Source of the DNA: an uncultured Alphaproteobacteria bacterium
Lineage (GTDB): Bacteria > Pseudomonadota > Alphaproteobacteria > ATCC43930 > CGMCC-115725
Direction: 5' to 3'
Assembly: GCA_963716115.1 (NCBI GenBank)
Contig: CAVQSZ010000021.1
Location: forward strand, 36,779 to 100,778
DNA length: 64,000 nucleotides
Shown here piece by piece: positions 10,940 through 13,590 of this stretch (position 1 is the stretch's first letter; each line of letters begins with the position of its first letter). Both the position numbers and the translations under genes were made by a program. The notes under the pieces were generated by a model, which was not told where the DNA came from, ran no database searches, and saw only the letters and a list, made by a program, of their open reading frames with translations.

Positions 10940-11115
10940 ATGGCGAAGATCAAGGTGGCGCAGCCGGTCGTCGAGCTCGACGGCGACGAGATGACCGGAT
11001 CATCTGGAGCTTGATCAAGACCAAGCAGATCCGGCCGTATCTCGACGTCGACCCGAAATATTACGACCTCGGTGTGAAGAGCCGCGACGCCCTCTCGTCA
11101 GTGCGACGTCAATAG
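10940..11115 (+). pseudogene. icd: 5' remnant of dimeric-type NADP-isocitrate dehydrogenase (about 50 codons, internally frameshifted)
   Basis: MAKIKVAQPVVELDGDEMT, then a 1-nt loss at 10994-10998, then RIIWSLIKTKQIRPYLDVDPKYYDLGVKSRDA. This matches the N-terminus of alphaproteobacterial Icd. Homology ends at about 11095 and a stop follows at 11113. Confidence 0.8.
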
Positions 11116-11156
11116 ATCAACTCAGCCGAACGTAAGCGGCGCGCGGAGATGTAAGC

Positions 11157-13379
11157 ATGTCAGATCTCGAAATCGTTTGGACTAAGGTTGATGAAGCACC
11201 TGCGCTTGCTACGTTTTCCCTTCTGCCGATCGTCGAAGCCTTCGTCGGGGCGGCCGGCGTGAAGATGAAGCTGAAGGACATTTCGCTGACTGGCCGCATC
11301 ATCGCGAACTTCCCCGACAAGCTGACGCCAGCGCAAAAGATCAACGACGAGCTCGCCGAGCTTGGCCAACTTGCGATGCGCCCCGAGGCCAACATCATCA
11401 AGCTGCCCAACATCTCCGCCTCGATCCCGCAGCTGAAGGCTGCGATCAAGGAGTTGCAGAGCAAGGGCTACGACGTGCCGGACTATCCGGACAGCGACGC
11501 GACGCCGGCGGATAAGGAAATCCGCGCCCGCTACGCCAAGGTGCTCGGCAGCGCCGTCAATCCGGTGCTGCGCGAGGGCAATTCCGACCGCCGCGCCGCC
11601 GGCGCCGTGAAGCAGTACGCGCGCAACAATCCGCATAGGATGGGCGCCTGGACCAAGGACTCGAAAACGCGCGTGGCGGACATGTCGGGCGGCGATTTCT
11701 ACGGTTCGGAGGTCGCGGCGACCATTGCGGCGCCGACCAATGCCCGTATCGAGCTGGTCGGCAGCGATGGCGCGGTCACGGTGCTGAAGGCGAAGACGCC
11801 GCTTCAGACCGGCGAGATCATCGACGCGTCGGTGATGAGCCGTAAGGCGTTGCGCGCCTTCTTCGCCGCGCAGATCGACGCCGCGAAGAAGGACGGCATC
11901 CTGTTCTCGCTGCACGTCAAGACGACCATGATGAAGATCTCCGATCCCATCATCTTCGGCCATTGCGTTTCCGTGTTCTTCGCCGATGTGTTCGAGAAGC
12001 ATGGCGCCACGCTAACGCGCCTGGGCGTCGATCCCGACAACGGCGTGGGCGACATGCTGACCCGGATCGAGACGTTGCCGGAGGCCGAAAAGGCGGCGAT
12101 CAAGGCCGATATCGAGGCCACCTACGCGAAGCGGCCTGGCCTCGCCATGGTCAATTCCGACCGTGGAATCACCAATCTGCACGTGCCGAGCGACGTCATC
12201 ATCGATGCATCGATGCCGGCGATGATTCGCGAGTCCGGGCACATGTGGGGCGCTGACGGCAAGCTGCACGACGTGATCGCCGCGATCCCCGATCGTTGCT
12301 ACGGGCCGCTGTTCGAGGCCGTCATCGAGGACTGCAAGGCGCATGGCGCCTTCGACCCGAAGACGATGGGGTCCGTGCCGAACGTCGGGTTGATGGCGCA
12401 GCAAGCCGAGGAGTATGGCTCGCACGACAAGACGTTCGAGGTCGCCACGGGCGGAACGGTGCGCGTGGTCGCCGATGACGGCACGGTTCTGCTGTCACAG
12501 CCGGTCGAGACCGGCGACATCTTCCGGATGTGTCAGGTCAAGGACGCGCCGATCCGGGACTGGGTCAAGCTTGGGGTGCGCCGCGCGCGCCTGACCGGCG
12601 CCCCGGCGGTGTTCTGGCTCGACGCCAAACGCGCGCACGACGCACAGTTGATCGCCAAGGTCGAGACATACCTGAAGAACGAGGACACATCGGGTCTCGA
12701 CATCCGCATCCTGGCGCCGGTCGAGGCAATCAAGCTCTCGCTCGAGCGCATCCGCAAGGGGCTCGACACCATCTCCGTCACGGGCAATGTGCTGCGCGAC
12801 TACTTGACCGATCTTTTCCCGATCATGGAGCTGGGCACGTCGGCCAAGATGCTGTCGATCGTTCCGCTGCTGGCGGGCGGCGGGTTGTTCGAGACCGGGG
12901 CCGGCGGTTCGGCGCCCAGGCATGTGGAGCAGCTCCAGCACGAAGGCTATCTGCGCTGGGATTCGCTGGGCGAGTTCCTGGCGCTTGGCGCTTCGCTGGA
13001 ACATCTGGCGCAGACGAGCGGGAATAAGGACGTGCAGGTTCTGGCCGAGACGCTCGATGAGGCCAACGGCAAGATCCTCGAGTACAACCGTTCACCGGCG
13101 CGGAAGATTGGCGAGCTGGATAATCGTGGCAGCCATTTCTACCTGGCGCTGTATTGGGCGCAGGCGCTGGCCGGGCGGGACAACAGCCCGGCGCTGGCAG
13201 CCCGTTTCAAACCGCTTGCGGAGGCGCTGGCGGCCAACGAGGCCAAGATTAATGCCGAGCTGATCGCCGCGCAGGGTAAGCCGGTGGATACTGGCGGCTA
13301 TTATCTGCCTGATCAGGCCAAGACATCGGCGGCGATGCGGCCGAGCGCGACGCTGAACGCTGCGCTCGCCGCTCTCTGA
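11157..13379 (+). CDS. Monomeric-type NADP-dependent isocitrate dehydrogenase (740 aa)
   Basis: The length and the motifs [49 protein letters not shown] are characteristic of the ~80 kDa monomeric IDH family. GC is visibly lower than in neighbouring genes. Confidence 0.9.
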
Positions 13380-13415
13380 CGCGGCGTCAAGTGGAGCCGC
13401 CGCCCAGGGCAGCCC

Positions 13416-13590
13416 GCCGACGACAAGACCACCGACGACAAGATCACCGTCGACGCGGCCGATGCGATCAAGCAGGGACGACATGACGCGCGATCTGGCG
13501 ATCCTGGTTCGCGCTGATCATCCCTGGTTGACGACCAGTCAGTTCCTCGACAAGCTCGACGCAAATCTGCAAAAGGCCATGGCGCAGTAA
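13416..13590 (+). pseudogene. icd: 3' remnants of dimeric icd (residues ~53-69 joined to the last ~35 codons)
   Basis: TDDKITVDAADAIKQ (N-terminal region of Icd) is followed, out of frame, by MTRDLAILVRADHPWLTTSQFLDKLDANLQKAMAQ-stop, the canonical Icd C-terminus. Confidence 0.75.

Follow-up and report, generated by a model that had tools for sequence, protein, structure and literature searches.

The locus described here occupies positions 10,940 to 13,590 of a 64,000-nt stretch of DNA from an uncultured alphaproteobacterium (GenBank assembly GCA_963716115.1, contig CAVQSZ010000021.1, forward strand), the whole of which is called the window below. It consists of a complete gene for a monomeric NADP-dependent isocitrate dehydrogenase (IDH) lying inside the remnants of icd, the gene for the dimeric IDH. 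All-frame translation of window positions 10500-14000 gave the following order of features, where cassette denotes the inserted DNA and RBS a ribosome-binding site:

10853-10881, + strand: promoter-like element of the native icd gene, TTGCCT (10853-10858), 17-nt spacer, TATCCT (10876-10881).
10940-11091, + strand: 5' stump of icd, the gene for the type II dimeric NADP-IDH, codons 1-51 (from translation, a PDB match and homologous stumps).
11092-11156 (65 nt), + strand: 5' end of the cassette, a monomeric IDH leader of putative donor type with its own RBS, GGAG (from the left junction and leader homology to Reyranella-type loci).
11157-13379, + strand: complete monomeric NADP-IDH, 740 aa (from PF03971 and alignment with 1itw).
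13380-13415 (36 nt), + strand: 3' end of the cassette, CGCGGCGTCAAGTGGAGCCGCCGCCCAGGGCAGCCC, corresponding to the ascending arm plus loop of a putative donor terminator hairpin (from comparison with Reyranella-type GCCGCCCCGGGCAACCGGGGCGGCTTTCT).
13416-13430, + strand: duplicated copy, GCCGACGACAAGACC, of icd codons 52-56, specific to the window (from the repeat listing; absent from relatives that keep the junction).
13431-13475, + strand: icd codons 52-66, TDDKITVDAADAIKQ, which follow on without a gap from the last codon of the 5' stump (from translation and PDB alignment).
13476-13590, + strand: deletion joint GGACGAC (7 nt), then the last ~35 icd codons and the stop (from translation, PDB alignment and the native 3' ends of loci L149-L152).
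13613-14570, + strand: D-2-hydroxyacid dehydrogenase (from PF00389/PF02826 matches and synteny).

The RBS of icd, GCGAGGA, lies ~8 nt 5' of the stump ATG, downstream of the promoter-like element. With one missing base restored, 10940-11091 translates as MAKIKVAQPVVELDGDEMT(R)IIWSLIKTKQIRPYLDVDPKYYDLGVKSRDA; the base has been deleted after codon 19 (after 10996; GAG ATG ACC [C]GG), and the frame closes at TGA 11012-11014. The same 1-nt deletion is common to three other loci (L003, L004 and L109) and is therefore real and not a sequencing error. The last stump codon is codon 51 (GCC), which ends at 11091, and the insert begins at 11092 (CTCTCGTCAGTG). In the window alone, the leader lacks 17 nt (the CAAGACAGGCCATAAT region, including CATAAT) between about 11107 and 11108. 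The monomeric IDH gene is the only open reading frame (ORF) within the cassette, whose tail lacks the descending arm and T tract of the terminator. Beyond it, a repeat search placed a 15-bp tandem repeat at 13416-13445, and the remnant of codons 52-66 is 93% identical over 44 nt to the native icd of locus L150. The segment 13483-13590 encodes MTRDLAIL...QKAMAQ followed by the stop, is out of frame with codons 52-66 and represents icd codons about 368-404, and ~300 internal codons (67 to about 367) are gone from the window.

A first-pass annotation, made from the sequence letters alone, had described most of this arrangement. It correctly placed the Icd start at 10940, the C-terminus at 13483-13590 and the complete monomeric IDH at 11157-13379, and it recognised that icd breaks off before the newcomer and resumes after it, joined out of frame to the C-terminus; the break lies at 11091 (codon 51) and not at about 11095, and the resumed stretch covers residues 52-66 and not ~53-69. 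The lower GC content that it attributed to the newcomer exists as a modest dip, being 0.56-0.57 only over 11000-11450 and about 0.61-0.68 in the rest of the monomeric IDH gene, with 0.62-0.75 in the flanks.

The identity of both enzymes could be assigned from their sequences. In a PDB search, the joined peptides of the remnants matched the Sinorhizobium NADP-IDH 3us8 (overall E 2.6e-39) in two stretches, query residues 1-66 (3us8 24-89; i-E 2.4e-27) and the last ~40 residues (3us8 386-426; i-E 4.8e-08), and the 5' stump gave a weak PF00180 match at profile positions 1-46. By this similarity, which is far beyond chance, the flanking fragments are recognised as remnants of a type II (eukaryote-like) homodimeric NADP-IDH, Icd, and the first-pass proviso that they might prove unlike dimeric Icd does not apply. 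An uninterrupted ORF of ~404 aa is lacking, the window icd being split by 2.3 kb, frameshifted and ~300 codons short; it is a pseudogene and not a functional member of its family. The 740-aa ORF matches PF03971 over positions 2-733 of 734 (1268.5 bits) and aligns without gaps, 1-740 on 1-740, with the monomeric IDH of Azotobacter, 1itw (E=0). It keeps at the aligned 1itw positions all the checked substrate, metal and NADP residues, which we take to be S132, N135, R139, R145, K255, D350, Y420, R547, D548, D552, H589, R600, D602 and R649 of the Azotobacter enzyme (AvIDH); K588 is R. Among relatives, its divergence is ~0.02 at codon positions 1+2 vs ~0.1 at 4-fold sites, a pattern that indicates purifying selection. 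An exact-protein look-up of the window IDH found no record. The newcomer is non-orthologous to the displaced gene (PF03971 vs PF00180), and full Icd queries gave only weak local matches inside IDH genes, at 21-32% identity.

More than 100 homologues of the window IDH were found at 91-97% identity; several are labelled Stellaceae, a family now listed by NCBI as Allostellaceae (Rhodospirillales). Relatives were gathered by a genomic-context look-up, a genome scan and a metagenome scan for the left junction, and were compared by tblastn and alignment. More than 40 independent contigs show the junctions of the window, and the monomeric IDHs that they encode share 92-97% identity with that of the window. 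The left junction, GACGCC/CTCACGTCAGTG (also written GACGCC/CTC(A/T)CGTCAGTG, the first slash marking the joint), is identical in about 40 metagenome contigs as well as the genome loci, and the right junction, GGGCAGCC/C ACC GAC GA., was found in at least 15 loci, some with minor substitutions. Every monomeric IDH with readable flanks that is at least 92% identical to that of the window is accompanied by the left junction or a deletion derivative of it, and also by the right junction wherever this is undeleted; two loci with an IDH about 92% identical (L156 and L157) carry the same insertion. In the relatives that keep the right junction, GGGCAGCC/C runs directly into ACC GAC GA., without the 15-bp repeat of the window. 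The first-pass annotation had rightly seen this repeat and had assigned it to the 3' junction; it is a later, lineage-specific duplication of codons 52-56 and not a junction signature.

The lesions in the icd remnants differ between lineages. The 5' stump is in frame in L001, carries a 12-nt deletion and an in-frame TAG in L002 and L133, has lost codons 1-40 in L008 and codons 3-49 in L013, and is missing altogether from L009, L016 and L156; together with L010 and L014, seven loci have had stump codons partly or fully deleted. At the 3' side, L011 retains residues 64-143 and 370-403, L008 retains 52-64 and 98-154, and L001 and L003 retain the last 8-10 codons only. The same junctions combined with lineage-specific lesions therefore imply one insertion followed by independent decay, and the event is, as read from these sequences, old, ancestral and shared by the clade. 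The suggestion that the window offers a direct snapshot of displacement in this genome has accordingly been abandoned.

The state that preceded the insertion has also been preserved. A reconstruction of Icd based on the best-preserved remnants shares 82-86% identity with intact 404-aa proteins, many of them from metagenome-assembled genomes (MAGs) of Stellaceae, and its best tblastn hit to a query set of Icd proteins from tandem-type loci, in which monomeric IDH precedes an intact icd, is 68% (residues 45-399). In L151 and L152 the gene order is SspB-fumarase-ECF sigma-x-LTXXQ-LysM-LOG-icd (404 aa)-2-hydroxyacid dehydrogenase-acetyltransferase-DOPA dioxygenase-(DUF3309)-M15; YkuD follows M15 in L151, and the L152 contig ends at M15. 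L002 has the same gene set, with the stump and monomeric IDH replacing icd, and the intact L153 and the carrier L001 correspond likewise, so that the newcomer sits at the locus of the original gene with the same neighbours on both sides. The synteny comparison proposed in the first-pass annotation thus found intact icd between LOG and the 2-hydroxyacid dehydrogenase gene, within the wider neighbourhood of the carriers; its fear that relatives might show the same arrangement together with a separate intact icd was unfounded, since the intact-icd relatives have no monomeric IDH at this locus.

Alignment with these relatives defined the insertion point. Over their flanks, L002 and L011 share 84-91% nucleotide identity with L151, the left alignment running exactly to codon 51. 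The DNA 5' of the stump is collinear with that 5' of intact icd in L149-L152, and TTGCCT-N17-TATNNT and the RBS lie within the collinear part. The native target in L150 reads CGC GAC GCC/ACC GAC GAC AAG ATC ACC, the target bases being contiguous at the insertion point (slash). In L133, the stump, the cassette and the right junction are followed by icd residues 52-404 as a single open frame of 353 codons, which keeps the catalytic motifs, among them IGRHAYGDQY, ACKNYDGDVQSD and EAAHGTVTRHYR, and then by the 2-hydroxyacid dehydrogenase gene. Because icd 52-404 is still open after the insert in this locus, the insertion came first and the internal deletions later, which is the sequence of events that had been proposed for the ~300-codon loss in the window. 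Taken together, these data make it very likely that the locus arose by in-situ non-orthologous displacement, through a single ~2.3-kb insertion into the native icd of a Stellaceae ancestor followed by independent decay.

Several carriers depart from this general structure. In L105 (22-254; WNFB01100789.1), two copies of the icd stump (144-22 and 162-254) stand in inverted orientation to one another upstream of monomeric IDH, which is either a palindromic duplication or an assembly artefact at the contig end. In L004 (8284-8922), a DUF4145 gene directly follows the cassette and has removed the last icd codons that are kept by the nearly identical L003, both being JGI contigs. L010 (7190-7340; DASYXG010000226.1) is the sole insertion-bearing locus with a complete terminator hairpin after IDH (GCCGCCCAGGGCAGCCGGGGCGGCTTCTTC), directly followed by icd residues about 381-404 (the ~24 last codons), and most of its leader is missing; the complete terminator may reflect a second recombination with donor-type DNA. 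In L154 (1-1134) and L155 (1-800), both from the Stellaceae assembly GCA_035504235.1, the contigs begin inside IDH and continue with the truncated terminator, icd codons 52-57 (ACCGACGACAAGGTGAC) and GGCCG, after which an intact 404-aa icd opens with its ATG, so that the disruption allele and intact icd stand in tandem. Campbell-type integration, with a circularised fragment, could have produced this tandem, as could a join at TCGATG microhomology. Finally, in a sister IDH lineage (84-89% identity), inverted icd fragments surround monomeric IDH (L025 4650-8611, L072 4649-4750 and L032 4808-4897): C-terminal residues about 352-402 lie just upstream of IDH, N-terminal residues 1-26 and 84-104 lie about 1.2 kb downstream of it in L025, and a PIN/MazE-like toxin-antitoxin pair with an IS4/5 transposase fragment is found between the icd pieces. 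This may be an independent second disruption of icd.

The insertion clade is nested, in the IDH tree, within a set of lineages that have an intact icd of 403-408 aa downstream of monomeric IDH, at a spacing of 32-273 nt or about 1.2 kb. These tandem lineages comprise Reyranella-type MAGs, several MAGs labelled Xanthobacteraceae or Rhodopseudomonas, and Magnetospirillum sp. LM-5. The closest tandem loci (L021, L022, L024 and L026, also L018) read ...GATTGCCTTTGCC TCACGGCGGTGCAACAAGACAGGCCATAATCAGCAATAGATCAAC...GGAGGTGCA.G.ATG 5' of IDH and contain the hairpin terminator GCCGCCCCGGGCAACCGGGGCGGCTTTCT between IDH and icd; the complete form of this donor-type hairpin is GCCGCCCAGGGCAGCCGGGGCGGC. 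In the window clade, the cassette starts with CTCACG ~90 nt 5' of the IDH ATG, contains no donor sequence 5' of CTCACG and ends in the hairpin loop. As its leader and terminator half are homologous to Reyranella-type loci, the cassette looks like a fragment of such a locus, and the putative donor would be a Reyranella-type lineage that is itself unsampled. The donor phylogeny suggested in the first-pass annotation therefore led to a neighbourhood in the tree and not to a donor with identical ends, and the monomeric IDH that it called a foreign analogue, although it did enter the native icd, is not exotic and resembles the icd neighbour in a Reyranella-type sister lineage. The IDH leader AATAGATCAACTCAGCCGAAACGAAAGCGGCGCGCGGAGG (window 11108-11156; L001-L026) is strongly conserved from Stellaceae to Reyranella-type loci, beyond the surrounding non-coding DNA, and may represent a regulatory site.

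A repeat search found no terminal repeats, whether inverted or direct, flanking 11092-13415, and at the insert neither a target-site duplication beyond 1-3 ambiguous bases nor a recombinase gene was found. The cassette, with IDH as its only ORF, therefore does not have the features of a transposon, an insertion sequence (IS) or an integron cassette. Junction microhomology is 0-3 nt (GCC/CC), and these ends point to the capture of a linear fragment at a break. In the proposed course of events, a ~2.3-kb linear fragment cut from a Reyranella-type-like locus, comprising the 5' leader, monomeric IDH and half of the terminator, would have entered between icd codons 51 and 52 by illegitimate recombination in an ancestor within the Stellaceae (Rhodospirillales). 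In one step, icd would have been disabled and monomeric IDH put under the native icd promoter, the 51-codon stump serving as a transcribed leader. The icd pieces then eroded separately in each lineage, and the window is one such derivative, with a 1-nt frameshift in the stump, the 17-nt leader deletion, the 15-nt duplication at the 3' side and the loss of codons 67 to about 367.

The proposed use of the icd promoter is consistent with the conservation of the element. TTGYCT-N17-TATNNT is conserved in 38 insertion-bearing loci, and the element is retained in carriers with a readable upstream region despite loss of the stump (L008, L013 and L009), with the variant TTGCAC-N16-TAAGGT in L016. A promoter function is suggested because of this conservation across carriers, and the reading that the putative native icd promoter now drives monomeric IDH fits the data. 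Transcription would then pass from this promoter through the stump into IDH and, probably, because the terminator is truncated, would read through into the 2-hydroxyacid dehydrogenase gene, giving co-transcription of the two. No terminator-like site was called on the + strand after monomeric IDH, and the leader, stump and 3' tail gave no Rfam match at E<=1.

The main alternative to a gene brought in from outside is a local rearrangement of an ancestral LOG-IDH-terminator-icd tandem, either by a segment swap or by a duplication with two deletions. Such tandems with LOG upstream are widespread in Reyranella-type loci and surround the insertion clade in the IDH tree, and all three breakpoints have ...GCC on their left; nevertheless, this origin is very improbable, since the region upstream of the stump is that of native Stellaceae icd, collinear with LOG-icd genomes that have no IDH, and hence there is no third junction. 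The remnants are moreover of the Stellaceae type and not of the tandem-type partner (82-86% against the 68% hit given above), and a duplication with two deletions would require three coincident endpoints. A hybrid promoter at the third junction, composed of the IDH-upstream -35 and the 3' half of the terminator, had been predicted by the swap/duplication model and was rejected, the promoter region being native and collinear. Equally little can be said for retention of the 5' stump as a functional leader peptide, upstream ORF or regulatory RNA for monomeric IDH, which we regard as most improbable. It is true that the stump is present in most carriers and that its divergence is 0.07-0.21, as compared with 0.19-0.46 in the 110 nt upstream (ranges that leave out pairs with L003, whose IDH has an indel). 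However, its frame is broken differently in each lineage, its codons are partly or wholly deleted in seven loci while the promoter stays, Rfam offers no match, and its divergence is at or above that of IDH 4-fold sites (0.07-0.15); these two ranges overlap, and the rate test is not decisive alone. The stump thus looks dispensable. A chimeric contig, in which assembly or binning had joined an icd fragment to monomeric IDH, would be in keeping with the resemblance of the window to long-read MAGs with indel errors (split high-scoring pairs, extra G), but can be practically dismissed, as the same junctions occur in dozens of independent JGI, ENA and NCBI assemblies made by differing methods.

The check for another icd copy that the first-pass annotation had asked for covered the 64-kb window and found none there. 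Displacement by a single insertion has to be weighed against several findings that count against it or parts of it. The search for a donor returned no locus in which both leader and terminator are identical; among tandem-type IDHs, the nearest reach no more than 85-91% identity. A consensus promoter scan of 10600-13700 returned no site, TTGCCT-N17-TATCCT scoring 8/12, below threshold. The complete terminator of L010 and the tandem of L154/L155 need extra recombination events, and codon bias in a highly expressed gene could partly account for the low synonymous divergence of IDH, on which the comparisons below draw. It is to the distribution of the allele among lineages that this last point applies. 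Under one insertion with strictly vertical inheritance, the intact icd genomes would have regained the gene, or the discordance described below would stem from codon bias and poor MAG binning. A highly expressed tricarboxylic acid (TCA)-cycle gene may diverge far less synonymously than its neighbours, and flank genes could themselves be exchanged, MAG flanks being short. Strict verticality is nevertheless unlikely: the non-coding stump is far more alike between hosts than the adjacent intergenic DNA, with an identity step at the stump start; L002 and L133 share stump lesions despite roughly 30% flank divergence; genomes in the pre-insertion state are sisters of carriers on the flank tree; and regaining intact icd itself requires recombination at the locus.

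The comparisons behind these statements are as follows. Between L002 and L133, the flanks are 69.7% and 73.3% identical, whereas the stump and cassette are 93.1% identical, the block of identity opening 7 nt before the stump ATG; the lesions in common are the 12-nt deletion and the in-frame TAG. At 84.5% and 86% identity, the flanks of L002 stand nearer to those of L151, a genome with intact icd, than to the flanks of most of the other carriers. Over 14 carriers, mean 4-fold divergence is 0.109 in IDH and 0.394 in the flanking 2-hydroxyacid dehydrogenase and acetyltransferase genes (r = 0.30; ratio 0.08-0.60). In the flank tree, L151, L153 and L150, all with intact icd, fall among the carriers, L151 as sister to L011 and L153 as sister to L005. 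The 3' remnants have two ancestries: those of L133, L007, L012, L127 and L092 are 85-95% alike, and that of L011 is 73-76% identical to L133-type remnants and 85% to native L150. Alignments of the window to metagenome loci begin at about 10917-11039; their right-hand end is at about 13400-13440 in contigs long enough to include it, several contigs ending inside the IDH gene.

Given that codon bias is possible, the main weight of the case for recombination lies with the stump, the lesions in common and the discordance of the trees, none of which codon bias can explain. On this evidence, which falls short of proof, the balance leans towards spread of the disrupted allele among Stellaceae lineages by homologous recombination, with the icd remnants and flanks as homology arms. 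It is slightly favoured, on the same comparisons, that the icd stumps serve as built-in homology arms and that the icd::monomeric-IDH allele acts as a self-targeting replacement cassette for related genomes with intact icd, which would be converted in a one-step swap. If true, this would explain how one insertion occurs across Stellaceae with ~30% diverged flanks, interleaved with icd-bearing lineages, and a single allele, sweeping by recombination, would be replacing a core TCA-cycle enzyme throughout a bacterial family.

Non-orthologous gene displacement, including "gene displacement in situ" within operons, has reportedly been described before. To our knowledge, published in-situ cases are usually inferred from gene order alone, and the mechanism and intermediate states of core-enzyme displacement are almost never seen, being usually inferred long afterwards from gene presence and order. 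The present locus resembles such cases in that an unrelated or distant enzyme of the same activity has taken over the place of the original on the chromosome and probably its expression signals; it differs in that the halves of the displaced gene flank the newcomer, that the pre-state and the undeleted intermediate are available in relatives and that knock-out and knock-in would have been a single step. Both IDH types occur together in Colwellia maris and Mycobacterium. Pseudomonas aeruginosa likewise has a dimeric ICD plus a monomeric IDH (bioRxiv 10.1101/318345). The two families in such bacteria are those found here, and an IDH-icd tandem is a plausible source of the cassette leader and terminator, but both genes are intact there, whereas here the monomeric gene has destroyed the dimeric one.

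Two further systems offer partial parallels. In capsule or O-antigen switching of transformable bacteria, alleles are replaced via homologous recombination in conserved flanks, and there as here the foreign block is more alike between hosts than its surroundings, with identity steps at conserved flanks; the difference is that the homology arms would here be the displaced gene's own remnants, and every genome with intact icd would be a potential target. Linear DNA is also known to be captured at double-strand breaks, through end joining or microhomology, or to enter by homology-facilitated illegitimate recombination. The locus shares with such capture a clean insertion with no loss of target bases, microhomology of 0-3 nt and the lack of terminal repeats or a recombinase, and differs in that the mechanism is here deduced from the junctions alone.

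Literature searches found no published report of this IDH replacement. The intact native gene, the insertion with an open 3' part and the decayed derivatives are all present in public assemblies, so that the replacement can be read step by step. What is unusual is that the newcomer lies inside the displaced gene, that the states before, just after and long after the event survive, and that the remnants may act as homology arms. If recombinational spread is confirmed, the remnants of a displaced gene can carry the displacing gene into new hosts, and the locus would provide a natural system in which to ask why these soil bacteria prefer the monomeric IDH over the dimeric enzyme.

Some minor features of the window and its relatives remain to be mentioned. 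The LOG-family gene (Lysine_decarbox/LDcluster4), which lies 5' of the icd promoter in nearly all relatives, is absent from window positions 8509-10850; the region left of the promoter instead contains a minus-strand ORF at 8509-9669 and an ORF at 9771-10832 without a Pfam match, whose product begins like a lipoprotein and has an odd tail rich in Arg, Gly and Ala. As the LOG gene has been replaced by other ORFs, a further rearrangement has taken place just left of the promoter. The 2-hydroxyacid dehydrogenase gene of the window is frameshifted by an extra G in CTTGGGCC near 14061-14066, as compared with L001, L005 and L007, and is split into two ORFs (13610-14581 and 14061-14570); the frameshift may be genuine decay or else a sequencing error in a homopolymer, and several long-read MFD MAG loci show similar split matches. 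Lastly, the icd stumps account for short "hypothetical" ORFs that these MAGs have beside their monomeric IDH genes, such as the calls of 54 and 56 aa in L002 and L157.

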